Source: Planctomycetota bacterium (GTDB lineage Bacteria > Planctomycetota > Phycisphaerae > UBA1845 > Fen-1342). Taken from it: a DNA stretch of 22,930 nt. The position numbers and the translations under genes are program-made. Below are positions 5,269-22,291 of the stretch, in pieces; position 1 is the stretch's first letter; every line of letters begins with the position of its first letter. The stretch spans positions 322 through 23,251 of the forward strand of contig JACZRH010000042.1 of assembly GCA_022574815.1 (NCBI GenBank), read 5' to 3'. Under the pieces are notes generated by a model. The model had not been told where the DNA came from and made no database searches. It saw only the letters and a list, made by a program, of their open reading frames with translations.

Positions 5269-5275
5269 GCGCCGG

Positions 5276-7573
5276 TCAGGGCCCGTTCCGCCACCAAGAG
5301 ATGCGGTCACTGGGGTTGCGCGCGTACGTCGCCGTGATCAGGTCGGCACCATTGGCGCCGTCGAGATTGGCGGCGGCAACGTCGCTCAAACCATCGTAGC
5401 CGCTGGCAACCGTTTCGGGCGCCCATCCGCCGCCGGGCAGTCGCGAATAAAGCAGCAGCTCGGCGGCCTCGTTCGAGGCCACCGCGATGTCGGTCAGCCC
5501 GTCGCCGGTGAAATCGTCGGCCGCGACGCGCGCGAAGAGCCCGTTGAAGGCGGCGTCAATCGTGCCGAGCGTCCAGGCGGCGTTCGGATTCGTGCCGGGG
5601 TCGTAGCTCGCGAGTCCCACGCTGTAGTCGGGCGTGGTCACCACTAGCTCGAGCTCGGCGTCCTGGTCGAGGTTCACCAACTCGATGTCGTAGGGCAGCA
5701 TCGGCGTCGCGATCACTTGCTTTTGAAAGGTCGCGTCGCCGCCGGCCCGCACCGTCCGGTACCAGGCGATCTCGCTTCCGAGCCGGCCGAGGGCCAGCAG
5801 GTCTTGGATACCGTCGCCGTCGACATCATGGCGGAGGATCTTCTCGACGCCGCGCAAGTTGGCGTCGATGGCGATGGGTGGACTCCACTCCACGCCGAAG
5901 GACATGTTACGGATCCAATACAGCCCGTTGCCGAGTGTGTTGCCGTTGTCTTCGACCTCGAGGGCGCCGACGACGATGTCGGCGAATCCGTTGCCGGTCA
6001 GGTCAAGACACTCGATCGAGCGCGCTCCCCAAATGCTGAAGCGCGGGAAGGTAACCTGGTGCGTCGTCCACGTTCCGGTCGCTACGCCGGGGTTCTCGTA
6101 CCACACGACCTCGCCGGCCGAGGAAAAGCCCACATTGCGGTCGAAGAGCCCGACCGCGGCGATGTCCGGATCGCCGTCGTTGTCGATGTCCCCCACGCAT
6201 ACGTCCATGGCGACGATCGCACCGATGCCGGAGACCTCGACCGTGGTCCAGTTCCGGCCCGCGCCGTTGTTGACATAGAGCCTGACGGCGTCGGTGAGGC
6301 TCAGGGCGGCGACGATGTCGATGTCGCCGTCGTTGTCGATGTCGATGGGTTCGACGTTCTGCCCGTGCATGCCCTGGCCGTCGATGAGCTGCTCGGTGAA
6401 TCCGCCCGGGCCGCCGCCATTCGGATCCGGATCGGGGTCCGGGTCGGGATCGGGATCGGGATCGGGGTCCGGATCAGGATCCCGCAACTGCGTGACCGCG
6501 ACGATCATGGTGTCGGTCGCCGAGCGCTCCGACAAATCGTCGTAGACCTCGAGTTGCATCGTAAAGATCGTCCGCAGCGTCACGTCGGGCGCCGTGAACG
6601 TCGGACGGACCGGATCGCTCAGGTCGAGCTGAAGCACCGGCGTGGCCGGCTCGAGCTGCGTCCAGGTATACGTCAATTGGCCGCCCGACGGGACGCGGCT
6701 CCCCGAACCGTCGAGCGTCACCAGCTCGCCCGCCATGGGATTGTGCTGGTCCGGACCGGCGTCCGCGATCGGCGGCGGAATGTAGCCCTGGGGCCGAACC
6801 TCGACCTCCATCCAGTCGTTGCTGGATTTCACGCCGTCCTCGGTTTCGCCGTAGACGAGCAGCAAGAAGCGGAAAGTCACCGGATTCTCGCCGACCTCGG
6901 GCGCCTCGAAGGTAGCGACGGGCGCGCTGGCGTCGTCGAACTCGACCATGAGGACCTCGGGCAACGGGATTTGCTGCCAGAGGTATTCGGTGATCTCGCC
7001 GTCGAAGTAGTGGTAGCTGGCGGTCGCGTCGAGCGAAACGACGTCGCCGGCGGTAACGATCAGGTCGGGGCCGGCATCGGCGATGGGGCCGCTGGCCTCG
7101 ACCGTCAGCACCGCGAAGCTCACGTCCGAGTTTCCTTGGTTGTCGCGCACGGTCTGGGCGAATGTGTACCGCACGGCGCTGCGAACAAAGGGCGCGACAA
7201 ACTCGGGTGCGGCCGAGTTCGGCTCTTCGAGTACGACGTCGGGCATCTGCTCCCGAGTCAAACGCTGGTACACCGACACCTTGCCGGTCATGCCCCACTC
7301 ATGGGTAATCGGATCGCCTTCGGGGTCGCTGCTGGCCGAGCCGTCCAGAGTGACGGTCTCCCCGCCGAGAAACACAGTCCGTTCGATTTGACTCCGCGCC
7401 TGCGGCGGTTGATTGCCCGGCTCTTCCTCGCCGGTTGGCTCCGGATCCGGATCGTAGAACGGCGGGAGCACGATTTCTTCGGTGTCGTCGAGTCCGATAC
7501 AGCCCGCGCAGCTCGTTAGCATCGCCGCGCCGGTCAGTGCCAGTGTCGCAATTCTCGTCGTGCATCCGGTCAT
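5276..7573 (-). CDS. Lipoprotein with three PKD-like domains, a (PD)10 linker and an FG-GAP/VCBS beta-propeller (integrin-alpha-like)
   Basis: The track ORF is 5276..7678. A start at MTGCTTRIATLALTGAAMLTSCAGC (ATG at complement 7571-7573) is preferred: GGAGAG sits 6 nt upstream and the signal peptide plus Cys match a lipobox-like site. PKD-like cores: VTLDGSASSDPEGDPITHEW, VSLDATASYHYFDGEITEYLW, VTLDGSGSRVPSGGQLTYTW. Then PDPDPDPDPDPDPDPDPDPN. Then FG-GAP-like Ca-binding loops: DIDNDGDIDIV, GDIDNDGDPDIAAV, DVDGDGIQDLLAL, DDFTGDGLTDIAV, NLDGANGADLITA. Confidence 0.8.
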   Translation of the reverse strand: MTGCTTRIATLALTGAAMLTSCAGCIGLDDTEEIVLPPFYDPDPEPTGEEEPGNQPPQARSQIERTVFLGGETVTLDGSASSDPEGDPITHEWGMTGKVSVYQRLTREQMPDVVLEEPNSAAPEFVAPFVRSAVRYTFAQTVRDNQGNSDVSFAVLTVEASGPIADAGPDLIVTAGDVVSLDATASYHYFDGEITEYLWQQIPLPEVLMVEFDDASAPVATFEAPEVGENPVTFRFLLLVYGETEDGVKSSNDWMEVEVRPQGYIPPPIADAGPDQHNPMAGELVTLDGSGSRVPSGGQLTYTWTQLEPATPVLQLDLSDPVRPTFTAPDVTLRTIFTMQLEVYDDLSERSATDTMIVAVTQLRDPDPDPDPDPDPDPDPDPDPNGGGPGGFTEQLIDGQGMHGQNVEPIDIDNDGDIDIVAALSLTDAVRLYVNNGAGRNWTTVEVSGIGAIVAMDVCVGDIDNDGDPDIAAVGLFDRNVGFSSAGEVVWYENPGVATGTWTTHQVTFPRFSIWGARSIECLDLTGNGFADIVVGALEVEDNGNTLGNGLYWIRNMSFGVEWSPPIAIDANLRGVEKILRHDVDGDGIQDLLALGRLGSEIAWYRTVRAGGDATFQKQVIATPMLPYDIELVNLDQDAELELVVTTPDYSVGLASYDPGTNPNAAWTLGTIDAAFNGLFARVAADDFTGDGLTDIAVASNEAAELLLYSRLPGGGWAPETVASGYDGLSDVAAANLDGANGADLITATYARNPSDRISWWRNGP
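6422..6481. repeat. Hexanucleotide microsatellite (GGRTCN)x10 encoding the (Pro-Asp)10 linker
   Basis: ggatcc ggatcg gggtcc gggtcg ggatcg ggatcg ggatcg gggtcc ggatca ggatcc. The reverse frame reads (DP)n inside the lipoprotein CDS. Confidence 0.85.
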
Positions 7574-7825: not shown

Positions 7826-8443
7826 ATGGAATTCGAGAAGCTCGTGGCCGAGCGGCGCTCGGTGAGTCGTTTTGACCCCGGTCATTCGATCAGTGACGCC
7901 GAGTTAAAGTCGCTGTTCGAGCAGGTCGTGCTCTCGCCGTCCTCATTCAACCTGCAACATTGGCGGTTCGTGGTCGTGCGTGACGCCGAGAACAAGGCGA
8001 AGCTGCGCAAAGCCGCGCTGGGCCAAGCGCAGGTCGAGCAGGCCTCCGCGACGATCGTCGTGATCGGCAAGCTCGACGCGCACACGGATGCGGCGACGCT
8101 CTACGCCGACACACCGCCCGAGGTGCGTGACAACCTCGTCCCGATGATCGAGCAATTCTACGCCGACAAGCCGCAATTGCAGCGCGACGAGGCGGTTCGC
8201 AGCGTTTCGCTGGCGGCGATGACGCTGATGTACGCGGCCCGCGACATGGGCTACGCCACCGGCCCGCTGATCGGGTTCGACCCGCAGGCGGTCAGCGACC
8301 TGATCGGTCTCGACGGGAACCACATTCCGGTCCTGCTGATCGCGATCGGCAAACAGGTCGGCGACCTGCGTCCCCGCTCGGCGCGTCTGCCGGTCAGCGA
8401 AGTCGTGCGGCTCGAGACGATGAGCGGCCCGGGGCCGACCTGA
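7826..8443 (+). CDS. Nitroreductase-family NAD(P)H oxidoreductase
   Basis: 205 aa. N-terminal RRSVSRFDPGHSISDAELKSLFEQVVLSPSSFNLQHWRFVVV, typical of the nitroreductase fold. GGAGAAG SD before the ATG. Confidence 0.85.
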   Translation: MEFEKLVAERRSVSRFDPGHSISDAELKSLFEQVVLSPSSFNLQHWRFVVVRDAENKAKLRKAALGQAQVEQASATIVVIGKLDAHTDAATLYADTPPEVRDNLVPMIEQFYADKPQLQRDEAVRSVSLAAMTLMYAARDMGYATGPLIGFDPQAVSDLIGLDGNHIPVLLIAIGKQVGDLRPRSARLPVSEVVRLETMSGPGPT

Positions 8444-8586
8444 AGCGCGCAACGCTTTCCAGATCCAACGTTTCTTGCGAACGACAAATTCATACGCGGA
8501 TGGCGGCCGCGCACGCGTGCCTCTGCGTATCGCCTGCAAACTGCCGATTTCCTGCCGAGCTGCGCAAGTTCTGCGAGCCAGCCACC

Positions 8587-8613
8587 GAACCCTGAACCCC
8601 GAACCCTGAATCC
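8587..8613. repeat. Short tandem heptamer repeat (GAACCCY)x~4 in a 440-bp intergenic region
   Basis: gaaccct gaacccc gaaccct gaatcc, read directly from the sequence. No coding context. Confidence 0.4.
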
Positions 8614-8882
8614 TTGCGTTGCGCCCCGGGGCGGCGCTCGACGGCAGCCGATTCTGGGAGGTTATGAACGGCCGCGCGGTTTGTAATAGCGGCTTGCTCG
8701 GGCATCGGTTAGGCTATTCGTAGAAGGACCGCGGGCGTGGCATGAACCTGCGTTAAGCGCGTGCTGGGCAGCGACGCACCGCCGTTGCCGACGAAACACT
8801 CGCCGGCGCTACGGCAGTGTTCCCCGATCGCCCGAATTTGCAGCGCGGTCCTCGCTGATCTGGCGCAAGCTGGAGGTGTGCA

Positions 8883-9554
8883 ATGATTGAGCTCCTGGCT
8901 GTCCCACTAATTCTCGCGGCCTCGTTGCTCGCGACGATGACCACGATCTATTGGATCTGCGCGATTCTCGGCGGCGGGTTGCTGGTGATCTCGACGATGA
9001 CGGGCGGAGACGCGGACGTCGGCGGCCACGTGGACGCTGACTTTGACGTGGACGTCGACGCGGGTGACGTGTCGATCGAGCACGCCGGCCACCTCGACGC
9101 CGCAAGTGCCGGCGCCATGTCGCTTTCGGCGTGGCTTTCGATGCGGTTCGTCGTGTTCTTCATGGCGGTGTTCGGCATCGTCGGCTTGGGGTTGACGTAT
9201 CTGACCGAGAGCGGCGTGAGTGCCGGTCTGACGCTGGGCATCGCGCTGGTCGCGGGGGTCTGCGTCGGGCAAATCGTTCATCAGCTCGTGCGTGCGGTGC
9301 AGAGAAACTCCGGCGACAGCACGCCGCGCCCGCAGGACTACGTGAACAAACTGGCGCGGGTGAACATCGCGTTCAGCGCGCCGGACAAAGGGGAAGTGGC
9401 CTTGCAGGTGCGCGGGACCAAGCGCTATGTGCCTGCGGTGGCGAAACGCTCCGAAGCGGCGTTTGCCCGCGGCGACGACGTGGTGGTCGTCAGCTACCGC
9501 GGCGGCGTGGCGGAGGTGGTTTCACGAGAAGATTTCGAACAGTTGCACGGATAA
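8883..9554 (+). CDS. NfeD-like (YqiJ-type) membrane protein, partner of flotillin
   Basis: 223 aa. Two hydrophobic segments. An acidic DADVGGHVDADFDVDVDAGDV stretch. A C-terminal soluble OB-like region (VRGTKRYVPAV...DDVVVVSYRGGVAEVV). GGAGGTG SD. Lies directly upstream of an SPFH/flotillin gene with a 18-nt gap, which is the canonical NfeD-SPFH operon arrangement. Confidence 0.7.
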   Translation: MIELLAVPLILAASLLATMTTIYWICAILGGGLLVISTMTGGDADVGGHVDADFDVDVDAGDVSIEHAGHLDAASAGAMSLSAWLSMRFVVFFMAVFGIVGLGLTYLTESGVSAGLTLGIALVAGVCVGQIVHQLVRAVQRNSGDSTPRPQDYVNKLARVNIAFSAPDKGEVALQVRGTKRYVPAVAKRSEAAFARGDDVVVVSYRGGVAEVVSREDFEQLHG

Positions 9555-9572
9555 CGTCCAGGGAGGTTTCGA

Positions 9573-10907
9573 ATGGACAGCTTGCTCCTCGCACAGGCCG
9601 GGACCACGGGGATTTTCTTCGGGGTCGTCGGGTTAGCCTTTATCGTGGCGATCTTTGTAACGGTTGCCAAGCTGATCGTCGTCGGCAACCCCAGCGAAAT
9701 GGTGGTCATTACGGGCGCCAGGCAGCGCGACGGATCGGGGTACAAAGTGTTGATCGGCGGACGCAAGATCGTCATTCCGATCTTCAACAAGGTCTTGCGC
9801 CTCAGCCTGCGCAACATGCAGGTTGCGCTGGAAGTCAAGGCGCAGGCCGGCGGCGGGACGATGATGCCGATCACGGTGACCGGCGTCGCTAACGTGAAGG
9901 TCTCGTCCAACCCCGCCGAGCGCGGCGCCGCGATCGAGCGCTTCCTCGGCCAGCCGGAGCAGGAAATGCAGCGCGTGGCGCGCGAGACGCTCGAAGGCGG
10001 ACTGCGGGCGGTGATCGGCAAGATGACGCCCGAGCAGATCGTCGAGGACCGCGACTTGTTCGTCTCCACGGTCATGCAGGAGGTCTCGGACGACTTCCGC
10101 AAGCTCGGCATGATCATCGACAGCGTCAACATTCAGAACGTCCACGACGACCAGGAATACCTCGAGTCCATCGCACGCAAGGCGCGGGCGAACGTCATTT
10201 CCGAGGCGCGAAAGACCGAGGCGGCCCGGGCGGCCGAGGCGGTGGTCAAGGAGGCCGAGGCCAATGCTTCCGCCCGCACGGCCAAAGCCAACCGCGACGC
10301 CGAAGCGAAATTGGCCGAAGCGTCTTCGCGGCAGAAGGCCGAGCAGGCCCGCTACTCGGCCGACACGGCGATCGCCGAGAGCCAGAACACGCTCCGCATG
10401 CGCCAGGCCGAGCTGGCCCGCGAGGCGGCCATCAAGGAGGCCGAGCAGCAGAAGGCCGAGGCCCAGGTCGAGCAGGCCCGCCTGGCCGCGACCGATGTCG
10501 CCAAGGCGTTCGCCGAGCGCGACATTGCCAAGGCCAAGGCGGAAGGCGACGCGGCTTCGGTCATGGAAGAGGGCAAGGCCCGCGCGTCGGCGATCGAGCA
10601 GATCGGAGCATCGATCCAGAAGCATCCGGAAGCGCTGAAGGTCATGCTGATCGAGATGATGCCGTCGATCGTTCAGGAGTTGGCGAGCACGGTCAAGGAC
10701 GTCGATCTCGGCCAAGTCACGGTCATCGACAGCGGCGACGGGCGGGCGATGGCCGGGGCGGCCTTGGGCCGGGCCCGAATGCTGTCCGAGTCGCTGGCGA
10801 CGGTCGAATCGCTGCTCGGCATCGACCTGAAAGCACTGTCGCAGGGCATTGCCGGGCGTATGGGCAAGACGGCCGAGAAGGACACCGCACCCGCCCCTGC
10901 CGAATAG
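9573..10907 (+). CDS. Flotillin-like SPFH/band-7 protein (YqiK/FloT-like)
   Basis: 444 aa. N-terminal TM (IFFGVVGLAFIVAIFVTVA). SPFH domain (VVITGARQ...VLIGGRKIVIPIFNKVLRLSLRNMQVALEV...TVTGVANVKV). A long Ala/Glu/Lys-rich coiled coil (EA repeats), then a C-terminal flotillin-type region. GGAGG SD. Confidence 0.85.
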   Translation: MDSLLLAQAGTTGIFFGVVGLAFIVAIFVTVAKLIVVGNPSEMVVITGARQRDGSGYKVLIGGRKIVIPIFNKVLRLSLRNMQVALEVKAQAGGGTMMPITVTGVANVKVSSNPAERGAAIERFLGQPEQEMQRVARETLEGGLRAVIGKMTPEQIVEDRDLFVSTVMQEVSDDFRKLGMIIDSVNIQNVHDDQEYLESIARKARANVISEARKTEAARAAEAVVKEAEANASARTAKANRDAEAKLAEASSRQKAEQARYSADTAIAESQNTLRMRQAELAREAAIKEAEQQKAEAQVEQARLAATDVAKAFAERDIAKAKAEGDAASVMEEGKARASAIEQIGASIQKHPEALKVMLIEMMPSIVQELASTVKDVDLGQVTVIDSGDGRAMAGAALGRARMLSESLATVESLLGIDLKALSQGIAGRMGKTAEKDTAPAPAE

Positions 10908-11109
10908 GCCGTTTTCTTATATCGGACCCATCGGGCCGGGCCTTCGCGCCCGGCCCGTGTTCATATCCGCGATGCGGGACTTGCGCCACGAGCGGGTCCG
11001 TGCCGCGGTGCCGCAGGCGGACCGGGGCCACGACGGCTCTGTTGTGCAGCGGCGCTGGTTTCTGCAAGATTCTGTATTCGCGACAACATCCCTAAGGTAA
11101 GATCGGTGC

Positions 11110-12596: not shown

Positions 12597-13781
12597 CTAG
12601 TCGCGGCCGATTTCGACGTCGGCAGCGTCGAGCTCGAGTTGGTCGGCCACCGCTTTCGCCTCGCGCCGCACACCGGCGGCATGCTTCGAATGGTTCCATC
12701 CGCTGAGCGGGCTGACCTCGACCGCCAGACGGCCGCGGCGTTGCTTGTGGGTCCAGGTCGCGACGGCGCGGCCGCGCGCCAGCACCACGGCCGCGACGAA
12801 CGCCGACTTGCGCCAAACGAGTTTGCGATCCGCCTCGATCGGCGTCGTCCAGCTCTTGTCGGCGTGCGCCATCAGCAGCGTTTCCCACAGCGGCAGCAGA
12901 CGCAGCGGCCACTTCTCCGCGCTTCGCGGCGGCTTGACGCTCAGGTCCGGCATGTCGGCGGTCAGCGCTACGAGGCCCTTGCGGTCGCCGCAGCTTACGG
13001 GTGCCAGTTCGCCATCTTTGTTCAGCAAGTCCAGCCACTCGATGGCACTGGACACGCGCGCGCCGAAGAAGTGGGCCAGGTCTCGGGCGGTCGCCGGCCC
13101 GTACGTAGCGAGATAGCGGCGTGCCAGAGCGGTCGCGGCTTGGCGCGGGGCAGTCGCTGAACGAGGCCATTTAAGCTTGGGGAACCAGTGCTCCCGGGCC
13201 ACGTAGGATTGCTCGGCTCCGACCTTGTCGGCCATGCAGACGTCGCCGCGATGCGCGAGACACCAGAACAGCCGCCCGGCGGCGAGCTGGCGAGCGGCGG
13301 AGCCCGGGCCGACTTTCTCTTCGGCCTCCCGCAGATAGCTCGCAGGCAGGATCGGCTGAAGATCACGCCGCGTGAGCGGCCCGGACGCCGACCTCAGCAA
13401 CTCCCCCGCCTTCTTAACCAGCGCCTCGGGCGGCATCGCCCCGCGCCGCCCGCCGGGCGCCCACTCGCCCCGCGCGGCGACGATCAGCTCCCAGTCATTC
13501 GGGTCGAAGATGTGCAACGTATCGCGCTGCCCCCAGGTCCGAACCACCTCCCGCGGCGGCTCGAGCAGCCGCGCTTTGAGCTCTGCGGTGGTCGGCCGAT
13601 CCTTCATCCGCATGCTGAGCGCGAGCAGCGACGGGTTCAACTGCTGTGACTGCGCCCCAATCATCGCCCGCGCCGCGGCCGCGGCGTCGGGAGCGCCGGA
13701 ATCGGTCAGGTGCCCGCGGCGGGCGCGGAAGTAGAGGATCTGTTCGTCGGAGTATTTGCGAGCGCCTGATTCCTTGGGCAT
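12597..13781 (-). CDS. Winged-helix DNA-binding protein of the AlkZ/YcaQ (HTH_42, DUF1006) DNA-glycosylase-like family
   Basis: 394 aa. The N-terminal MIGAQSQQLNPSLLALSMRM...VVRTWGQRDTLHIF looks like the Q-x-Q catalytic-motif region and the 'RxTxH' segment of AlkZ-like proteins. Family assignment is from memory of the family signature, not from a search. Confidence 0.45.
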   Translation of the reverse strand: MPKESGARKYSDEQILYFRARRGHLTDSGAPDAAAAARAMIGAQSQQLNPSLLALSMRMKDRPTTAELKARLLEPPREVVRTWGQRDTLHIFDPNDWELIVAARGEWAPGGRRGAMPPEALVKKAGELLRSASGPLTRRDLQPILPASYLREAEEKVGPGSAARQLAAGRLFWCLAHRGDVCMADKVGAEQSYVAREHWFPKLKWPRSATAPRQAATALARRYLATYGPATARDLAHFFGARVSSAIEWLDLLNKDGELAPVSCGDRKGLVALTADMPDLSVKPPRSAEKWPLRLLPLWETLLMAHADKSWTTPIEADRKLVWRKSAFVAAVVLARGRAVATWTHKQRRGRLAVEVSPLSGWNHSKHAAGVRREAKAVADQLELDAADVEIGRD

Positions 13782-13902
13782 TACAGTCCAGTTGCATCGG
13801 CACAGAGCGAAGCCGCATGAAAATCGTCAGCCCGTAAGTTGGCAGTCATGTACGGTGCGAATGGCCAGAACAGATCGCTGAAAAGTCGCTCGATCCTTCA
13901 GA

Positions 13903-14604
13903 CTATTGCGGGGCGGGCGTTGCGACGTGATCGCCGGATCTGATCGCTTCGCAAATCTCACGCACTGCGCGCTCAAACCGACGAAATGACCTAGGTCCGC
14001 AGGCGCGTATGGCCTCCAACGTAACCAACTGCGCCAACGGTTCTTGATCAGTCGATGGCTTATACCCGCGCTCCATATTCTGACTCAACCACTTCTTAGC
14101 GTCACGAGGTGATTCATCCGTATCCTGCTCGGACAAACGAGCCGAATCTCGAACGCCGGCGCGCCCGTCCGGGAGTTTCTTGCCGCAAAGCGACTCGATA
14201 CCGGCGAGCAACCAGGATTCGAACTCCTGTCGGGCAAAGACACAAGCAACCGAGAAAGTCGAACCAGCTCCGACCTTGCGAGCTTGCTCGGCCAAGTGGC
14301 GCGCCACAACGGCAGCGCAAAAAGGCTGTTTCTCTTGACCGATCCAGACGTGATCTCGATCGCCGTCCAGCACGAGTAAGATTCCGCCTACGTTCTTCTG
14401 CTTGACAGCCGCCCTGAGCCAATTGTGCCATTTCGTGGTATTTCGCCCCGTGAGGTTTTCGACGCCGCCCACCTTGAACGCGTTCGTACCGAGGACTATT
14501 GCCTCCCAGGCATCAATATGCCTGATGAGTTTCTTCGTGAGAGCGGCGACGGCGCCTTGGTCGCCTTCGCCCTCTACAAACAAAATCAGTCGTCGCGGGC
14601 TCAT
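13903..14604 (-). CDS. Standalone TOPRIM-like nuclease domain protein (DUF4276/RloB-like, OLD-family C-terminal-domain analogue)
   Basis: 233 aa. Begins RLILFVEGEGDQGAV (conserved TOPRIM Glu), later ILLVLDGDRDH (TOPRIM DxD). Overlaps the upstream ATPase gene by 4 bp. Local GC of roughly 50% against roughly 68% in the flanks. Confidence 0.65.
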   Translation of the reverse strand: MSPRRLILFVEGEGDQGAVAALTKKLIRHIDAWEAIVLGTNAFKVGGVENLTGRNTTKWHNWLRAAVKQKNVGGILLVLDGDRDHVWIGQEKQPFCAAVVARHLAEQARKVGAGSTFSVACVFARQEFESWLLAGIESLCGKKLPDGRAGVRDSARLSEQDTDESPRDAKKWLSQNMERGYKPSTDQEPLAQLVTLEAIRACGPRSFRRFERAVREICEAIRSGDHVATPAPQ

Positions 14605-15773
14605 TCCGGCGGTGCGGTACTTTCTGGATCAATCCGGGCGTCGTCGACCGTCAAGAGTTCGTCCGCGGTCATGAGATGCTCTTCGAGTGCCTCCCTTTGC
14701 TCTGGTGCCAACAGGCCGATTTTCGTTTCATACTGCTCCATCGTTACAACGCGAATCTGCTGCACATCGAAATGTTTCAGCAGTTGCGGGCTGTGCGTCG
14801 TCAGGATGATCTGCGATCGTCCGCTATGGGCCACCGCCTCGAACTGGTCGGCCAGCACTTCGAGCGCTCCTGGATAGATGCCCTTTTCCGGCTCCTCAAA
14901 CGTTAGAATCGGTTTCGGTGGTTGCTGGTTCAAAGCAATCATGTGTGCCAGGAATCGGCGGAATCCTTCTGATTCCTGAGGTAAGTGAAAGGAGAGCGTT
15001 TTTGCCTCACCGACTTTGTGACCGACTCGCACGTGAGACCCGTCGGGGGCCAGCTCAACACTGGTCACCGACGAATTCAACCGTCTCAATGCGGCAACAA
15101 TGTCACTGATCCGATAATACTCAGATAGATTGGTGGCGATCCCTTCGATGGCAGCCATATGGTTGCTCGCATCGTCCATGAGAGCCGTACCAATTGCGGG
15201 ATCGCCCATAAGAGCCGTACTAACTGTGGGGTGGAAATCTCCGTGAGCCAGCACATTCCCAGGAAAATCGTAACAACCGATCCCCTTGGTCAGCACAATG
15301 TGGGCGATTCGCGCTTCGGGAATCCCGTAGAGCAACCCAAAGACCGGCTGTCCGGGATTGGGTGGGTCGACAAGTTTCGGTCGTTTTGTCCACTGGTTTT
15401 GGTTTTGGGAGAAAAGTACGTCATCACCCAATGTTAGGCTTTCGGCAACGAAAATGGCTAGAGCCCGCTGCGGATCTATTCTGAATGCAAGCACGTAAGT
15501 GACGCGTTTGGAAAGACCGGGAACTTGAAACTCGAGCTCGAAGGACAACTTCGCGGTTGATTCATCTCGTGTGGCACACAGCAAGCGTTCCCATCCGCCC
15601 ATGTGAGTTACGGCCACATCGGCGTGCAACAGGTAGTCACGAAGGAACCGCAAAGCGTGAACGAAGTTGCTCTTGCCCGTGCCGCTTCGGCCGATCAGCA
15701 CCGTCACCGGCTCGAGTGACACAGAGACATCACGCAGACTCATGAAGTTGCGTATGCGAATCCGCTTGATCAT
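14601..15773 (-). CDS. ABC-type ATPase of the AAA_15/AAA_21 (OLD/AriA/AbiLi-like) family
   Basis: 390 aa. MIKRIRIRNFMSLRDV start typical of this family. Walker A LIGRSGTGKSNF. Signature-like ESEGFRRFLA. Walker B PILTFEEPEKGIYP. H-loop ILTTHSPQLL. ATG at complement 15771-15773. Confidence 0.85.
   Translation of the reverse strand: MIKRIRIRNFMSLRDVSVSLEPVTVLIGRSGTGKSNFVHALRFLRDYLLHADVAVTHMGGWERLLCATRDESTAKLSFELEFQVPGLSKRVTYVLAFRIDPQRALAIFVAESLTLGDDVLFSQNQNQWTKRPKLVDPPNPGQPVFGLLYGIPEARIAHIVLTKGIGCYDFPGNVLAHGDFHPTVSTALMGDPAIGTALMDDASNHMAAIEGIATNLSEYYRISDIVAALRRLNSSVTSVELAPDGSHVRVGHKVGEAKTLSFHLPQESEGFRRFLAHMIALNQQPPKPILTFEEPEKGIYPGALEVLADQFEAVAHSGRSQIILTTHSPQLLKHFDVQQIRVVTMEQYETKIGLLAPEQREALEEHLMTADELLTVDDARIDPESTAPPE
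15178..15237. repeat. In-frame 30-bp imperfect tandem duplication inside the ATPase CDS
   Basis: catgagagccgtaccaattgcgggatcgcc / cataagagccgtactaactgtggggtggaa. Encodes the tandem peptides VSTALMGDPA / IGTALMDDAS. Confidence 0.6.
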
Positions 15774-15893
15774 CCGTACGCCTCAGTCACGCCCACGGGT
15801 CCGGAGCCGACATAATTGGCTCTCTCACGCGCCATTCGTTGAAGCGTAGCGCGCATTTTCCAGCCAGCACGTGCAGTTCGAGATTATCACTTC

Positions 15894-16052
15894 TTAGCCC
15901 CGACATGCCAAGTCCACCGCCTTCTCCTGAGCCACCGCAACCGCCTCATCATACCCCGCATCCGCATGCCGAATCACGCCCGCCGCCGGGTCGGCGGTCA
16001 GAACGCGCTGCAGGCGCCGGGCAGCGTCGTCCGTGCCGTCGGCGACGATGAC
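15894..16052 (-). pseudogene. Displaced, diverged duplicate of the hutU 3' end (last ~50 codons plus its own stop)
   Basis: Positions 15908-16052 are about 90% identical to 16597-16742, which is the 3' end of the intact hutU. The reverse frame reads ...[14 protein letters not shown], against ...[14 protein letters not shown] in hutU. Homology stops exactly at the brnA-like stop codon. Confidence 0.6.
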
Positions 16053-16054
16053 CG

Positions 16055-16258
16055 TCAACTCGCCTGCTTGTGCTTCGCGATCAACTCCCGCACGGTCGCC
16101 ACAAGTTCCACCGGCACTTCGATCAGCGACTGTGTCCGATCGTGATAGGCCGCCTCGTCCTCGGCCACGGCCTCATCTTCCGACTGCCGCTCGTAGCTCT
16201 CAAGCACGCGACGCACGCGCTCCGCATCCCAACCGTCCGGGAACTTGGCTTGGCTCAT
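16055..16258 (-). CDS. BrnA-like antitoxin (RHH/BrnA family)
   Basis: 67 aa, [40 protein letters not shown]...[16 protein letters not shown]. Sits downstream of the toxin gene and overlaps it by 4 bp. This gene order is the hallmark of brnTA loci. Confidence 0.5.
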
Positions 16259-16539
16259 GTTTTTCTCCGGCGCATTCGCCGCCTGAACGCGGTCAGCGTT
16301 TTGCCTTTCAACTCGTAAGCCGTGATCACAAACACGCTTTCGGGCTCGGGTTCAGGTACGTAGATCACACGCAGGGACCGTCCTTCACGCGTCTGCCCCA
16401 GAGCAACCCGGCTGCCGTCACGTCCCGGCCGATCCTCGCCGGGTCGCGCAAGCACGTCTTCGATCTCATGCTCGCGCACGCCGTGACCGTAAACGTGCGG
16501 CTGTCCCGTCTCTTCATCAACATAATACCTCACAATCAT
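16255..16539 (-). CDS. BrnT-like toxin (DUF497/RelE-superfamily ribonuclease)
   Basis: Preferred start MIVRYYVDEETGQPHVYGHGVREHEIEDVL...RVALGQTREGRSLRVIYVPEPEPESVFVITAYELKGK (94 aa). It aligns with the BrnT consensus: KHGVsFEEA, then ERfvtlG..GRlLvVv.T.R...IRIISAR.A. The track ORF extends to 16656, but that extension runs into hutU and is Arg/Trp-rich junk. Confidence 0.55.
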   Translation of the reverse strand: MIVRYYVDEETGQPHVYGHGVREHEIEDVLARPGEDRPGRDGSRVALGQTREGRSLRVIYVPEPEPESVFVITAYELKGKTLTAFRRRMRRRKT

Positions 16540-16582
16540 GGCTGGATTCCATGAATTCCAAGACTGGCGCCGCGCGGGCGAA

Positions 16583-18400
16583 TCAGTTGAGCCGCGCCAA
16601 ATCCACCCCCTTTTCCCGCGCCACCGCAACCGCCTCATCATACCCCGCATCCGCATGACGAATCACCCCCGTCGCCGGGTCGGCGGTCAGGACGCGCTGG
16701 AGGCGCCGGGCCGCGTCGTCCGTGCCGTCGGCGACGATGACCATGCCGGCGTGCAACGAGTAGCCGATGCCTACGCCGCCGCCGTGGTGGATGCTGACCC
16801 AGGTCGCGCCGCAGGCCGTGTTGGCCATCGCGTTCAGCATCGGCCAGTCGGCGATCGCGTCCGAGCCGTCCTTCATGGCCTCCGTCTCGCGGTTGGGGCT
16901 GGCGACCGAGCCGCAGTCGAGATGGTCGCGGCCGATGACGAGCGGGGCGCTGACCCTGCCCGTGCGGACCAACTCATTGAACACGAGGCCCATCTTCGCC
17001 CGCTGGCCGTACTTGAGCCAGCAGATGCGGCTCGGCAAGCCCTGAAACGCGACCTTCTCGCGAGCCAGGCGAATCCAGCGGCAAAGGTGCTCCTCCTCCG
17101 GAAACGTCGCCAGAACGGCGTCGTCGGTGGCGGCGATGTCGTCGGGATCGCCCGACAACGCGCACCAGCGGAACGGGCCGGAGCCTTCGCAAAAGAGCGG
17201 GCGGATGTATTCGGGCACGAAGCCGGCGATCCGGAACGGATCGAATTCAGAATTGCGAATCGCGAATAACGAAGTCTCCGGGTCGAACAGGCCACGTTCG
17301 ACCGCTTCCTTTGCGTGGCCGCGGAGGTTGTTGCCGTAGTCGAAGGTGACGGCGCCGCGGTTTTTGAGTTCGAGCATGGCCGCGATGTGCTCGCCCATCG
17401 TGCGATAGGACTGTCGCGTGTATTCGTCCGGATTCTGCTCGCGCAAGCGCAAAAGCTCCTGGTAGAGCTCATCCGTCCAGCGCGGCGCCGCACCGCGCGG
17501 ACTGAAGTCCGCGGCTCGCCCTCCTGCGTGGGTTTCGTGGATTCCATTGGGGACGTAGCCGTTGAGCGGGTCGTGGGCCGAGGTCTGATCGGTCAGCACG
17601 TCGGGCGTGATGCCGCGCGCGATCAGCGCCGCGAGCAGGTCGGCGGCGTTGCCGACCCAGCCGACCGAAAGCGGCCGGCCGGCGTCCTTCGCTTTCAAGA
17701 CCCATTCCAACGCCTCGTCGAGACTGTCGGTCATACGATCGAGGTACTGGGTCTTGAGCCGCCGTTCGATGCGCTGCCGATCCACGTCCGCCCCGAGAAA
17801 CACGCCTTCGTTGAAGGTCGCGGCCAACGGTTGCGCCCCGCCCATGCCGCCGAGCCCGCCGCTGACGACGAGCTTGCCCTTGAGGGTTGCGCTGGCGGGC
17901 GAGACGCCCGCCTCGCCGCCGAAGTGTTTGCGGGCACAGGCGGCGAAGGTCTCGTAGGTGCCTTGCAGGATGCCTTGCGTGCCGATGTAGATCCAACTGC
18001 CGGCGGTCATCTGGCCGTACATGGTCAGGCCGAGTTTTTCGAGCCGGTTGAACTCGTCCCAGGTGGCCCATTTCGGAACGAGCATGGCGTTGCTGATCAG
18101 CACGCGCGGTGCGTCGGGGTGGGTCTTGATGACGCCGACCGCCCGGCCGGACTGCACGAGCAGCGTCTCGTCGTTTTCGAGCCGCTTGAGCGCCGCGACG
18201 ATGCGGTCGAAGTCCGCCCACGAACGGGCCGCCTTGCCCCGCCCGCCGTAGACGATCAGCTCGTCGGGATTCTCGGCGACGTCGGGGTCGAGGTTGTTCA
18301 TGAGCATCCGCAGGGGGGCTTCGGTGAGCCAGGACTTGCAGGTGAGCTGCGTGCCGCGCGGGGCGCGGACGGTGCGGGATAGTTTTTGATCCACGACCAT
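16583..18400 (-). CDS. hutU: Urocanate hydratase (urocanase)
   Basis: 605 aa. N-terminus [51 protein letters not shown] and the internal [21 protein letters not shown] before the ATG at complement 18398-18400. Confidence 0.92.
16597..16742. repeat. Resident copy of the ~145-bp hutU-tail direct repeat (partner at 15908-16052)
   Basis: Direct sequence comparison of the two segments. They bracket the brnTA cassette with a 689-bp period. Confidence 0.7.
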
Positions 18401-18576: not shown

Positions 18577-19935
18577 GTGAAGCTTCCGGAACGACCGCCC
18601 GACTGGCTTGAACTCGTACGAACATCGTCCGAACCGTTTCAGATCGTACGCGATCCGGAAGGGCGAAAGATTGTGCAACGCGCCAACGCCGAATACTGGC
18701 ACTGGGATCAGCTTCGCCGTCGGCCGAGCCCGAAGCGATGGAAACGCGAAATCGTTTGGGCTGCGGTCAAGCTTGCGCGCACAGCTCAAGTCCACGAGAT
18801 CGGCTTGCGCAGCACCGCCGGCGAGCCGTTTTGGTTCTGGCTGCCGCAACACGTCCTGGAGATCCTGCACGAGATCGATCTCGGGCTCGCCGGAACCATC
18901 GGCTTCAACCTGCCCGAGAGCGCGTCGCGCGATCGTCAACGCTACCTCGTGAATTCGCTGATGGAAGAGGCGATCGCCTCGAGCCAGATCGAGGGTGCGG
19001 CGACGACCCGAAAAGTCGCGAAGGAAATGCTCCGAAGCAAACGGCAGCCGCGCACGCACGGCGAGCGCATGATCGTGAACAATTATCGAACGATTCGCAT
19101 GTTGAGCGACTTGAAAGATCGCCCTTTGTCGGTCGATCTCATCACGGAGATGCAGCGCTCGATGACGGTCGGCACGCTCGATAACTCCGACGACGAGGGC
19201 CGGATTCGAACCGCCCGCGACCACGTGCGCGTCGTGGACGGGCGGGACGGCGAGGTGTTGCACAATCCGCCGAAGGCACGCGAACTGCCCGGACGGCTGG
19301 AATCGCTCTGCAAATTTGCGAATCACGAATCGGACACCGGATTTCTTCATCCGGTCGTGCGTGCGATTCTGGTGCATTTCTGGTTGGCGTACGATCATCC
19401 CTTCGTGGACGGCAACGGGCGGACCGCTCGGGCCCTGTTCTACTGGCTGATGCTGCGAAACGGGTATTGGATGTTCGAGTTCCTGCCGATCTCGCGGATC
19501 ATCAATCAGGCGCCGGTGAAGTACGGTCGGGCGTTCTTGTACGCGGAGAGTGATGAATCGGACGCCACGTATTTCATCATGTTTCACCTGCGCGCCATTC
19601 GTCAGGCGCTTCGCGACCTGCACGCCTATCTGGATCGACGTCAGGAGGAGATTCAAGAAGCGCGCCGTCTCGTGCGTGTCTTCCCGAACCTCAACCATCG
19701 GCAAGTCGCGGTCCTGCGCGAGGCTGTTTCCGATCCGCGCCGCGAGTTCACGATCGCAGCCCACCAAAGCGAATACTGCGTCAGCTACGGAACCGCCTAT
19801 GCGGACCTGACGGGGCTCGTCAAGCAAAGGATGATGGTACGGCGGCGGCTGCAAGGGCGACAATGGGTGTTCTTCGCCGATGATGACTTGGCGCGTCGTT
19901 TACGGGGACCGAAGCGGGCGAATCGAGTCCCCTAG
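18577..19935 (+). CDS. Fic-family protein (Fido domain, probable AMPylase/NMP-transferase) with a C-terminal winged-helix-like region
   Basis: 452 aa. Canonical Fic motif HPFVDGNGRTARAL. GTG start at 18577 per the ORF track. Confidence 0.85.
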   Translation: MKLPERPPDWLELVRTSSEPFQIVRDPEGRKIVQRANAEYWHWDQLRRRPSPKRWKREIVWAAVKLARTAQVHEIGLRSTAGEPFWFWLPQHVLEILHEIDLGLAGTIGFNLPESASRDRQRYLVNSLMEEAIASSQIEGAATTRKVAKEMLRSKRQPRTHGERMIVNNYRTIRMLSDLKDRPLSVDLITEMQRSMTVGTLDNSDDEGRIRTARDHVRVVDGRDGEVLHNPPKARELPGRLESLCKFANHESDTGFLHPVVRAILVHFWLAYDHPFVDGNGRTARALFYWLMLRNGYWMFEFLPISRIINQAPVKYGRAFLYAESDESDATYFIMFHLRAIRQALRDLHAYLDRRQEEIQEARRLVRVFPNLNHRQVAVLREAVSDPRREFTIAAHQSEYCVSYGTAYADLTGLVKQRMMVRRRLQGRQWVFFADDDLARRLRGPKRANRVP

Positions 19936-20274: not shown

Positions 20275-20853
20275 ATGACGACCCTGGAGAGCGAGCACGC
20301 CATGCACGTACAAGGGACCGCGGTTGCGGAGCCGGCGATGGACGTCGAACGCGTGTTTGAGCGGTGCGCCCAGGCGCTTTGTCGTTATTTCGCCGTCCGC
20401 ACCGGTGATGACGAGCACACGGTCGACGACCTGATGCAGCAGCTCTGGCTACAGGCTCGCCGCAAGGCCTACAGCGTGCGGCAGCCCAACGCCGAGGCGT
20501 GGCTGTGGCGCGTCGCACAGAATTTGCTGCGGGCACACTGGCGAAGCCGGGCGCGGCGGCCGCAACAGGTGCCGCTGGCCGACCCGCAACTCGCCGCGGA
20601 ACTGGCCCGACGCTTCGACACCGAAGAACTGCCCGCCGAAGTGCTGGCGCGCAAGGAGGTGCGCGATCAACTGTTGCTGGCGCTCACCGCGCTGCCCAGC
20701 GCCGAGCAGGAATTGCTGCTGGACCACTACTTCCACGGCCTCTCGCACGCCTCGTTGGCCGAGGAGCACGGCATCAGCGAACGCGCCGTCGAAGGGCGAC
20801 TCTATCGTGCCCGCAAACTGCTCCGCGAAAAGCTCAAGCACCTGGAAACGTAG
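20275..20853 (+). CDS. ECF sigma-70 family factor (third in the window)
   Basis: Region 2-like DDLMQQLWLQARRK...AWLWRVAQNLLRAHWR and region 4 HTH EQELLLDHYFHGLSHASLAEEHGISERAVEGRLYRARKLLREKL. Start is uncertain (ATG 20275, or internal ATGs at ~20299/20338). Confidence 0.75.
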   Translation: MTTLESEHAMHVQGTAVAEPAMDVERVFERCAQALCRYFAVRTGDDEHTVDDLMQQLWLQARRKAYSVRQPNAEAWLWRVAQNLLRAHWRSRARRPQQVPLADPQLAAELARRFDTEELPAEVLARKEVRDQLLLALTALPSAEQELLLDHYFHGLSHASLAEEHGISERAVEGRLYRARKLLREKLKHLET

Positions 20854-20863
20854 GAGAACAACC

Positions 20864-22291
20864 ATGACCGATCGAAAGGACATGCACGACGCCTATCGCC
20901 ACCGCAACCTTCAGCGGATGGGACGCGAGCTGGCCCTTCCCGCCGAACCCGACGCGCAGCGCGAGGAACGCTGGAAGCTGCGCCGGCCTCCTGCCAGTCA
21001 GACAGGGCCGAGTCGAACTGTTCGTTTTGTACAACGCCACAAGCCCATGGCCTTGCTGACGGGCGGTGCCGCGGCGGCGGCCGTGACATTCGCGGTTTGG
21101 CTTGGCGTCGGCGGCTCGACACCCGTTTCGGCAGCGACGATTCTTCATCATTTCAAAACGGCGCTGACGGAGGCCGTCACGATCCGCATCGAGGGCGTCG
21201 ATCTGGGTAATGTCACTATCGACGGGGAAATCATTCTTGATCGTGCTACCGGCGAGCCGAACGAGAAAACGGACACCTTCTACTCCGAACTGCACGTCGT
21301 GCTCAAGGCGGATAACCCCGATTGGAACGACCTGGACGGCGCTATCGTCGTCTGTCAATCGCCGACGCAAGCGTGGGTATACTGCCGCGGCAACGGGGGA
21401 TCGGGCGGTGGATTGTTCGCGCCGCGCCGCGTTCGCCCGACGGAATACCTCGCCAAGGGAACGAACTGGCCCGAGTTTGTAAAGGATCCGCTCGGACACT
21501 TCGGTGCTATGCCGCTACAGCTTACTTTCTACTCATGGAACAGCCGGGTCAGGTATCGTTTCCTTGCTCCGCAGCGGGCCTACGTTCGGCAACTGCTGCA
21601 TTTCCTGCTCGACCTGAGCAGCGCCGAAACGGTCGAAGGGCTGATCGCCGAGTTGCAGGCGGCGGCGGGCCGGACCAGCGTCACGCGCGTGGACGAGACG
21701 ACATGGGTATTGCACGCATCGAACTTCGGGCGGATCGGCTCACTCGAGCCGCCTCAGCCGAAGATGCCGGACGTTGAGGCGCTGCTGAAAGATGTTGTAT
21801 GGGAATTGAACTACGACGTGCATTCCAGGAGTATCGTGGGATGGAGCACGACCGGAGGAGGAACAGCCGAATTGAGCGAGCTCGGCATCGGCGTGGACCA
21901 AGTCAAGTTGTCGGAGTTGGATCTGCCGACGGAGTCGGCGGATGCCCTGATCAAGTATTTTGAGGACACGGCCCGTAAGGTGGAGGTCGACCGGTCTTCC
22001 TGGTTGGGCCGCTGGAAGATCCGCGTGACGGGCTATCCGCTTCCGCTGGAAACCAGCGGCAGGGACTGGGCCGTGGAGATCATGCCGAAACTGATGCGCG
22101 GCATGGAATTGTCCGTGTACTTCGACGCCGAGGCCGGGACGGTCCGCCGCGCGGAGTTTCGCAACATCGCCTCGCCGGGCAGCCGAATCACACTCGAGCT
22201 GGGCCAGGTAAAGCTCGACCCGGCCCGTCTCGAACCGGACCGCTGGGTCACGGAGTACACGACCATTTATGAGTCGAGCAAAAACCCCTGA
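20864..22291 (+). CDS. Sigma-coupled single-pass membrane protein of unknown function (candidate non-canonical anti-sigma or sensor)
   Basis: The track ORF starts at 20807. The preferred ATG is 20864, 6 nt after a GGAGAACA SD and 10 nt after the sigma stop. About 60 aa cytoplasmic N-terminus (MTDRKDMHDAYRHRNLQRMGRELALP...). TM helix LLTGGAAAAAVTFAVWLGVGG. About 390 aa extracytoplasmic domain with no motif recognised here. Confidence 0.55.
   Translation: MTDRKDMHDAYRHRNLQRMGRELALPAEPDAQREERWKLRRPPASQTGPSRTVRFVQRHKPMALLTGGAAAAAVTFAVWLGVGGSTPVSAATILHHFKTALTEAVTIRIEGVDLGNVTIDGEIILDRATGEPNEKTDTFYSELHVVLKADNPDWNDLDGAIVVCQSPTQAWVYCRGNGGSGGGLFAPRRVRPTEYLAKGTNWPEFVKDPLGHFGAMPLQLTFYSWNSRVRYRFLAPQRAYVRQLLHFLLDLSSAETVEGLIAELQAAAGRTSVTRVDETTWVLHASNFGRIGSLEPPQPKMPDVEALLKDVVWELNYDVHSRSIVGWSTTGGGTAELSELGIGVDQVKLSELDLPTESADALIKYFEDTARKVEVDRSSWLGRWKIRVTGYPLPLETSGRDWAVEIMPKLMRGMELSVYFDAEAGTVRRAEFRNIASPGSRITLELGQVKLDPARLEPDRWVTEYTTIYESSKNP

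Follow-up and report, generated by a model that had tools for sequence, protein, structure and literature searches.

The window, by which we mean the whole stretch of DNA analyzed (22,930 nt of contig JACZRH010000042.1, Planctomycetota bacterium assembly GCA_022574815.1), carries the 3' end of the urocanate hydratase gene hutU twice: one copy (R) completes the intact gene, and the other (L) stands as an orphan tail behind a toxin-antitoxin (TA) pair and in front of a HEC-01-like candidate defence module, which is followed by an alkZ-like DNA glycosylase gene. On balance, we consider it probable that L is the orphan 3' end of a related strain's hutU allele and the left edge of a swappable slot between hutU-TA and alkZ, the HEC-01 segment in that slot being imported. 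The TA pair is most likely resident and the orphan tail a part of the imported segment, which reverses the roles assigned in an earlier sequence-only reading of this DNA, where the TA cassette was taken for the insert and the two tails for its scar. Four observations underlie this conclusion: (i) hutU, its R tail, and the TA pair are co-inherited, even at 83% nucleotide identity; (ii) everything from the antitoxin stop codon to a point ~18 nt inside alkZ is variable between strains whose flanks are 96% identical; (iii) the variable segments of the window and of the related contig L169 both open with a hutU tail of another allele, and do so at one and the same hutU position; and (iv) in a third lineage (L173), a further hutU tail fragment is joined to alkZ through microhomology. 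All sequences compared are metagenomic contigs, the useful related ones having been obtained through exact-protein look-ups.

Duplicated 3' End of hutU

The intact hutU gene (605 aa; positions 16583–18400, on the minus strand, as are all features named below unless noted) matches the Pfam families Urocanase_N, Urocanase, and Urocanase_C with E-values between 1e-60 and 4e-94. Its codons ~553–601 (16596–16742, the final four codons, stop included, being excluded) constitute R, the functional tail, and recur as a direct repeat at 15907–16053, ungapped over 147 nt with 136 identities (92.5%) and a longest exact run of 38 nt. The similarity of the two copies (blastn E-value ~1e-56) by far exceeds what chance would produce in GC-rich DNA, and the peptides that they encode are urocanase C-termini 94% identical to each other. 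The pair of copies proposed in the sequence-only reading is real, with an identity of ~93% rather than ~90% and with slightly shifted coordinates. The copies are spaced 689 bp apart in direct orientation and enclose ~540 bp, which hold the TA pair only.

A 42-nt spacer (16541–16582) separates the hutU stop from the gene for the toxin (94 aa; 16255–16539), whose stop is overlapped by 4 nt (ATGA) by the start of a gene for a putative antitoxin of 67 aa (16055–16258). At the junction (16053–16058), the antitoxin stop TGA is followed directly by hutU codon ~553, the repeat setting in 1–2 nt past this stop (16055–16057), just where the boundary had been placed before. From here, L runs as an in-frame open reading frame (ORF) of 54 codons (15894–16058, the repeat proper being 15907–16053) that ends in ...VDLACRG*. 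The repeat ends at ...GAC/T TTG GC, in the Ala codon of the conserved ...VDLA motif. Beyond the shared Ala each copy has its own diverged codons and its own stop, as had been noted, although the diverged codons number three and not four (CRG-TAA in L, RLN-TGA in R); the DNA 3' of the two copies is unrelated.

The same architecture is found in contigs L001/L003, L002, and L004, of which L004 is 95–97% identical to the window and has substitutions of its own in both tail copies; in the annotation of L004 and of one NCBI metagenome-assembled genome (MAG), L is entered as a Urocanase_C ORF of 54 aa. Since the arrangement is present in at least four independent assemblies and in two versions (95–97% identical to each other), it is not an assembly artefact. 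A chimeric join of two strains' reads might come to mind, because the data come from metagenome assemblies throughout and the boundary of the repeat is also where L165 and L173 are broken off; its probability is close to negligible, given that independent assemblies, samples, and assemblers yielded the same arrangement, including the 95–97% version with its own substitutions in both copies. The end of L165 (7590–7683) and position 1 of L173 coincide with the repeat boundary (window 16741/16742). L165 (P0001; GCA_022571925.1) has a hutU 96% identical to that of the window and ends at this boundary, without downstream context; the last ~30 codons of its hutU switch to a different hutU type, and this switch reflects either a chimera or a fork of the assembly in the repeat.

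Variable Segment Between the TA Pair and alkZ

Contig L169, with a toxin 97% identical to that of the window and flanks 96% identical, has hutU with an R-type tail followed by the TA pair. Its similarity to the window breaks off precisely at the antitoxin stop and is regained 18 nt inside alkZ (blastn homology over window positions 16789–16032, resuming at 13763). The corresponding variable segment of the window (13764–16053) comprises the L tail, a spacer, the two HEC-01 genes, and the first ~18 nt of alkZ. In the L169 slot, the L tail and HEC-01 are replaced by a decayed hutU pseudo-tail (MIHACDDTPVTDALLQPPPAADSATRIIRHAGPG, next a frameshifting 4-nt insertion, next QPIEVARDRAVGLA) and four ORFs without family matches. 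The L169 junction reads TTGATG, the A of the stop doubling as the A of a hutU Met codon. The junction coordinate is identical in the window and L169 despite the different hutU tail alleles: the pseudo-tail scores highest against L166, a distant hutU of the 'VCDGTPEAD' type (z = 15.6), followed by 8.5 for the window's R and 5.8 for L. No homology was detected between the DNA 3' of the window tail and that 3' of the L169 tail (z = -0.1).

Contigs L170 and L173, which share 83% nucleotide identity with the window, carry hutU-TA and then a lipoprotein-like ORF (L170 covers only part). When the window is compared with L170, identity at third codon positions amounts to 69.5% along the body of hutU and 67.3% along its R tail; the toxin gene gives 74.5% and the antitoxin gene 59.1%, without a step in divergence at the repeat boundary. 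After the antitoxin stop, L170 and L173 read ATCGCCGTCGTCTGCGCC, where 12–14 of 18 nt match the start of the hutU tail (P = 1.4e-3 to 4e-5 at this fixed position); the junction is therefore probably ancestral.

The contents of the slot thus differ, with HEC-01 in the window and L004, four ORFs without family matches in L169, and the lipoprotein-like ORF in L170/L173, whereas hutU-TA is common to all; alkZ is seen in the window, L004, L169, and L173, while L170 ends before alkZ. The TA pair can hardly be the insert, as had been supposed: it has co-diverged with hutU and the R tail at 83% nucleotide identity, and the polymorphic segment is the L tail with HEC-01. Nor was an empty site, i.e., hutU without the TA pair, found, hutU-TA being present in all six related contigs that reach the junction (L001–L004, L169, L170, and L173), a thin sampling.

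The right breakpoint lies inside the coding sequence of alkZ (12597–13781; Pfam AlkZ-like, E = 1e-42). The first ~13 codons of this gene in the window are unlike those of L169 and, in the comparable part, also unlike those of L173, whereas L169 and L173 agree (N-termini ..YSDEQILYFR in the window, ..FTEDQVLYFR in L169, and ..LTEDQVLYFR in L173). Since the codons are homologous yet diverged and the window is the odd one out, this border looks like ordinary homologous exchange with the window segment as the import. A further hutU tail fragment was found in L173 (Logan SRR29092996_1328595, positions 1341–1722), a single short Logan contig, where it interrupts alkZ at ~codon 102, the sequences joined there having the 7 nt GCGTGAT in common as microhomology. 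The fragment begins at another hutU coordinate than the junction of the window and L169, and the fusion adds to the scars of the window and L169 a third one, of independent origin, in this family of loci.

The opposite polarity, in which a 'hutU 3' part-TA' fragment of another strain, carrying the R tail, came into a resident hutU(L)-HEC-01-alkZ locus by hutU homology on the left and an illegitimate join within the resident tail on the right, L being the original tail, seems unlikely to us. L is indeed contiguous with its own stop, the spacer, and HEC-01, the structure is as expected of homology-facilitated illegitimate recombination, and such an event may well describe the ancient founding of the arrangement. 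As a recent event, it is at odds with hutU and TA having diverged jointly in the 83% relative; it also conflicts with L169, where the same junction is followed by another tail allele and other cargo, and with the 5' end of alkZ being deviant in the window, and it would need the same illegitimate breakpoint twice.

Origin of the Orphan Tail

The homologous parts of L and R differ in 12 codons, 9 of them synonymously and 3 non-synonymously. Neutral decay would make ~30% of the differences synonymous (P = 0.002 for 9/12), and selection on one copy with decay of the other ~40% (P = 0.015). Among themselves, the R alleles of the window, L169, and L004 differ at 3–11 of the 147 sites, and from L they differ at 11–14; because six sites have states common to all three R alleles and different in L, the latter falls outside the R-allele clade. 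To judge from these counts, which are small, L is a separate allele, about as deep as the population's own diversity, and not a copy of the present-day R tail. At most two of the ~8 changes on the L branch are non-synonymous (P = 0.011 for a pseudogene), and therefore most of the divergence arose while L belonged to a working gene. The amino acid changes of L (T→A, R→Q, and G→A) all affect residues that are conserved in most Phycisphaerae hutU proteins compared and that R retains. The T→A change postdates the split from L004, so that L has been free of selection for only a short time; as a protein, we infer, the L tail is without function. The C-termini of hutU vary naturally where L ends (VDLAR, VDLAGE, VDLASCD, and others), and an end after three further codons is what one would expect of a genuine hutU terminus of another strain. 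In a protein search, the L-tail peptide matched nothing but the 54-aa ORF already described (P0241) and short pieces of hutU; no full-length hutU with an L-type end was among the matches.

The same data speak to a scenario without any foreign allele, in which the hutU tail was duplicated in place, or an old orphan was converted by the real tail, and the copies then diverged. Their proximity and direct orientation would favor gene conversion, and changes confined to conserved residues among the three non-synonymous ones are as expected of a copy no longer selected. We nevertheless hold this scenario to be quite improbable, more so than the opposite polarity discussed above, in view of the excess of synonymous differences, the in-frame end and stop of L at the naturally variable hutU C-terminus with unrelated DNA after it, and the position of L outside the clade of present R alleles; moreover, conversion cannot account for different cargo or for the alkZ breakpoint. 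The 9:3 ratio, the separate stop, and the position outside the R clade thus agree with the earlier suggestion that L is a hutU tail of different origin and not a recent tandem duplication.

Exchange of Cargo Through the Orphan Tail

Each variable segment whose left end is readable starts with a hutU tail of its own allele and therefore came from a genome in which the segment lay directly downstream of hutU. The left ends fall on the same nucleotide with different tail alleles, which makes two independent illegitimate joins unlikely and a single old junction the simplest solution; probably this junction is common to L170/L173 and was followed by later replacements. In the old event, a hutU tail plus TA pair would have been placed before the resident tail, which was thereby orphaned behind the TA pair. 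This founding event most likely proceeded by homology-anchored illegitimate recombination. Later, DNA from a strain with HEC-01 directly downstream of an intact hutU would have recombined with the locus, the 3' end of the donor hutU pairing with the orphan tail as the left arm and the donor alkZ pairing with alkZ as the right arm. The donor hutU end, its stop codon, the promoter-like site, and HEC-01A/B would thereby have arrived as one block. Because the homology between donor and recipient hutU stops where the orphan tail stops, the donor tract would end exactly at the antitoxin stop, and the TA pair would be kept. Homology-facilitated illegitimate recombination with displacement of old 3' parts is the model proposed for Rhs, contact-dependent inhibition (CDI), and type VI secretion system (T6SS) arrays (PMC5361080), and the microhomology expected by that model is seen at the L173 junction. 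Exchange by recombination between hutU alleles, which the sequence-only reading offered as one of its explanations, comes closest to the data, except that the exchanged part is the downstream cargo and not the TA pair.

Several points weigh against this explanation. Neither a donor haplotype (a full-length hutU ending in ...ACRG* directly before HEC-01, with no TA pair) nor any TA-less site was found. The direction of the swap, i.e., whether the window or L169 is derived, is read from two short stretches, alkZ codons 1–13 and the 18-nt remnant, and an earlier orphan tail of the VCD type would pair poorly with an L-type donor tail. Between the window and L004, there are 2 differing sites in L against 8 in R, a contrast that calls for an additional recent exchange of the TA-L segment. 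Consistent with this, the two are ~0.6% different over 15700–16560, ~3% in hutU, and at least 5% in HEC-01, and the last exchange between these strains seems to be younger for the TA-L stretch than for the sequence around it; this agrees with a locus prone to recombination, at the price of one more step in the model. Finally, the sequences are all metagenomic, L173 is a single short contig, and the substitution counts are small.

The divergence between the window and L004 is patchy on a finer scale as well, with ~54 differences per 200 nt at the HEC-01A/HEC-01B boundary (14200–14500) and ~5 per 800 nt over the TA pair and the L tail, while hutU is ~5% different in its 3' half and 1.5% in its 5' half; this patchiness marks the locus as a recombination mosaic. 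In the nearly identical NODE_513 (L001), the ATPase sequence differs from that of the window by one base. The window has a 12-nt in-frame indel relative to NODE_513 at 7276–7287, in a gene for an 800-aa FG-GAP/PKD repeat protein; otherwise the two are 99.6% identical, with clusters of single-nucleotide polymorphisms at 10690–10980 and 20650–21710.

A more far-reaching idea, which we regard as doubtful, is that the TA pair and the orphan tail together act as a guarded landing pad or, in a more unusual variant, that integron-like cassettes use hutU codon ~553 as an attachment site with an integrase located elsewhere. On a landing pad, incoming 'hutU end-cargo-alkZ' DNA would have two possible partners, the real hutU and the orphan tail. 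If it paired with the former, the TA pair would be deleted and the stable toxin would kill the recombinant, so that survival would be restricted to recombinants formed through the orphan tail. Defence cargo would then keep exchanging while hutU and the TA pair stay fixed.

Search for Mobile-Element Machinery

Neither the window nor the longer related contigs contain an integrase, transposase, or tRNA gene, which confirms the earlier remark on the missing integrase and extends it to the relatives. The recombinase search, likewise negative, covered the scanned ORFs of the window and the Pfam-annotated genes of contigs spanning 10 kb on each side of hutU, and no excisionase was detected in the window or within 10 kb in related contigs. 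A third hutU tail is present neither between HEC-01B and alkZ in the window nor before alkZ in L169.

These results bear on the possibility of a decayed element of the e14/icd type, integrated by a recombinase at hutU codon ~553 with R as the surrogate tail and L as the displaced original, from which all but the TA pair was deleted, or of tail-plus-cargo cassettes mobilized in trans. The geometry and the substitution pattern are near-identical to those of icd/icdC around e14, the two tail alleles use one junction coordinate, and the independent contigs L165 and L173 break exactly there. In addition, scans of viral contigs for hutU tails gave one contig, from another taxon (L175; IMGVR_UViG_3300025298_000010, 1–2673), that encodes a tyrosine integrase (PF00589) on the opposite strand 64 nt downstream of an intact hutU; this is only a hint that hutU ends might be attachment sites elsewhere. 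We still judge an integrative element to be improbable. Besides the absence of integrase, excisionase, and tRNA within the limits given above, the bracketed DNA is only 540 bp long and its end coincides with the native C-terminus of the antitoxin. The hutU body, the R tail, and the TA pair have co-diverged without a boundary step, and the variable unit, as seen from hutU, lies beyond the TA pair instead of next to the hutU body, with no third tail after it. Furthermore, the right boundary in alkZ resembles homologous exchange, the tail fragment of L173 starts at another coordinate and with microhomology, L175 is without a second hutU tail in the ~19 kb readable, and none of the related contigs has an empty site. 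Exchange of the cargo between hutU-TA and alkZ accordingly remains the explanation that we prefer.

Survey of Other hutU Loci

The nearest named relatives of the hutU protein are from Phycisphaerae, at no more than 77% amino acid identity, and the 77%-identical P0002 and P0004 have no synteny with the window. Public genomes and JGI metagenomes yielded only hutU relatives of up to 68% amino acid identity, with no shared neighbors and no readable empty site. Among 160 distant hutU loci, a second tail match was obtained only in L016, a Thermosediminibacteraceae MAG, where it proved to be a full-length hutU paralogue and not a displaced tail; the two paralogues (5068–6672 and 8001–9650) are 1.3 kb apart and 49 and 63% identical to the query. 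Given this lone match, hutU is not a hotspot in general among relatives so distant.

P0343 and P0316, two short ORFs from the hutU C-terminus that lie on long contigs, are not displaced tails either, both being parts of frameshifted hutU genes. In L171 and L172 (ENA ERZ25039603), hutU is split by frameshifts into two or three ORFs, probably through long-read assembly errors; pieces of this kind mimic orphan hutU tails in protein databases.

TA Pair

The sole Pfam match of the toxin is DUF4258 (PF14076), with 28.8 bits against a family cut-off of 25 bits. No match to BrnT (PF04365, DUF497) was obtained in Pfam at the scan threshold (E ≤ 0.01), nor any in NCBIfam, and a phmmer search against PDB sequences was equally negative. 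The 67-aa partner matched no family above threshold in Pfam, NCBIfam, or PADLOC, and had no BrnA/CopG-like match. The name brnTA, used for the cassette before, is therefore to be dropped: DUF4258 and BrnT are separate families within the BECR RelE/ParE superfamily (2025 survey, PMC11980606), and the toxin is brnT-like only in this loose superfamily sense. For annotation, the pair should be labeled DUF4258 and not BrnTA, and the 54-aa 'Urocanase_C' ORF is best regarded as a pseudogene fragment.

Homologues of the toxin are numerous (4428) and mostly 93–95 aa long. The toxin gene precedes that of the partner, the reverse of the antitoxin-first order listed for DUF4258 in the survey (PMC11980606). 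The pair is kept in L169, L170, L173, and L174, a partner of 67–69 aa lying 3' of the toxin in the first three and also in L174, where the genomic context is unrelated. Among related contigs, the antitoxin has a conserved C-terminus (...KHK(Q/K)AS*) and is therefore native and not truncated by the junction. An apparent deletion in the antitoxin gene of L004 turned out to be a run of N. L174 (Logan SRR15677231_364744) encodes the same DUF4258 toxin and partner at 630–1120 (79% amino acid identity), with a prolyl-oligopeptidase-like gene on one side and a trypsin/BACON-domain gene on the other; over longer distances, the TA pair thus moves independently of hutU.

The spacer between hutU and the toxin gene, which is conserved in L004 and L169, contains a direct repeat (TGGAAT-N3-TGGAAT) that could be an operator of the TA pair. 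Read-through or coupling from the antitoxin gene into the L tail was considered and rejected, since the two reading frames are not the same and the window has ACG in place of the Met codon.

HEC-01 Module and Flanking Genes

The module behind the L tail encodes a HEC-01A-like ABC ATPase (390 aa; 14601–15773; PADLOC HEC-01A, E = 9e-49; Pfam AAA_21 and AAA_15) and a HEC-01B-like DUF4276 protein (233 aa; 13903–14604; PADLOC HEC-01B, E = 3e-31; Pfam DUF4276). Its GC content is 55–58% (54.6% for HEC-01A), compared with 67% for hutU, 71% for both tails, and 70% for alkZ, in line with the low-GC defence module described from the sequence before. As to an anti-phage role of the cargo, both proteins match PADLOC models, and the L169 cargo is without family matches. 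HEC-01 is a candidate defence system, of which a tested representative was not protective, and DUF4276/HEC-01B has been described as TOPRIM-like (bioRxiv 10.1101/2024.01.29.577857). The HEC-01A gene contains a tandem 30-nt repeat (15171–15230; two copies, 83% identical).

A 120-nt spacer separates the L-tail ORF from HEC-01A. A sigma-70-like promoter match (TTGGCA-17-GATAAT, 10/12, by consensus only; 15883–15911) spans the last codons and the stop of the L tail upstream of HEC-01A, the scan giving 1 site where 0.2 were expected from shuffles. By this match, the L tail may contribute the -35 element of a putative HEC-01 promoter; if the site is real, part of the donor hutU end would travel with HEC-01 since it holds the promoter.

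On the other side of hutU, a gene for a 452-aa Fic-domain protein (18577–19935, plus strand; PADLOC SoFic, E = 1e-43) lies in divergent orientation, so that candidate defence or toxin genes flank hutU on both sides.

Comparison With Known Systems

The arrangement at hutU is a variant of known 3'-end displacement and of cargo exchange at hotspots, and not a new system. It offers a clean and well-resolved natural example, in the poorly studied Phycisphaerae (Planctomycetota), of candidate defence cargo exchanged beside a housekeeping gene with no visible mobile-element machinery. The orphan gene end records where the cargo came from, and it may also serve as a reusable homology arm beside a fixed TA pair.

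The closest numerical parallel is icd of E. coli K-12, whose last 165 nt are 92.7% identical to the pseudogene icdC at the far end of the cryptic prophage e14, the codon differences being 9 synonymous and 2 non-synonymous. In both systems, a housekeeping ORF is completed by one copy of its last ~50 codons and an orphan copy stands downstream, the target-gene 3' end forming a direct repeat; the repeat length (165 nt vs. 147–162 nt at hutU), identity (92.7% vs. 92.5%), and ratio of synonymous to non-synonymous differences (9:2 vs. 9:3) are close. The likeness to elements that bring a surrogate 3' end, pointed out in the sequence-only reading, holds in these numbers, but the TA cassette is not an inserted piece bracketed by the scar. 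The e14 element encodes its own integrase, and strains without e14 exist. It is 15.2 kb long, whereas the hutU copies enclose a 540-bp TA pair without a recombinase; at hutU, moreover, the TA pair is co-inherited with the gene, and what is polymorphic is the orphan tail and the genes beyond it. As distinct from integrative elements in gene 3' ends in general, no further copy of the repeat bounds the added unit. An icd/e14-like signature, i.e., a duplicated tail with mostly synonymous differences, is thus by itself no proof of integrase-mediated insertion.

With the orphan arrays of Rhs, CDI, and T6SS loci (PMC5361080), the hutU locus shares a conserved 5' gene part that anchors incoming DNA, old 3' ends that are pushed downstream and kept as orphans of other strains' alleles, the retention of a protective gene, and microhomology at an illegitimate junction (L173). 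The anchor at hutU is, however, metabolic, and its tails encode nearly the same peptide instead of polymorphic toxin tips with cognate immunity genes. The retained module is a type II TA pair, the cargo is a candidate defence system, and each haplotype has one orphan rather than an array.

Defence-island hotspots between core genes resemble the locus in their conserved flanks (here hutU-TA and alkZ) with alternative cargo at flanks 96% identical, and in a cargo of lower GC content that includes a PADLOC candidate system, a SoFic-like gene lying on the other side of hutU. An ordinary flank-to-flank replacement leaves no duplicated flank; at hutU, part of the donor's left flank would have stayed in place owing to the orphan copy of this flank that the recipient has behind its TA pair.

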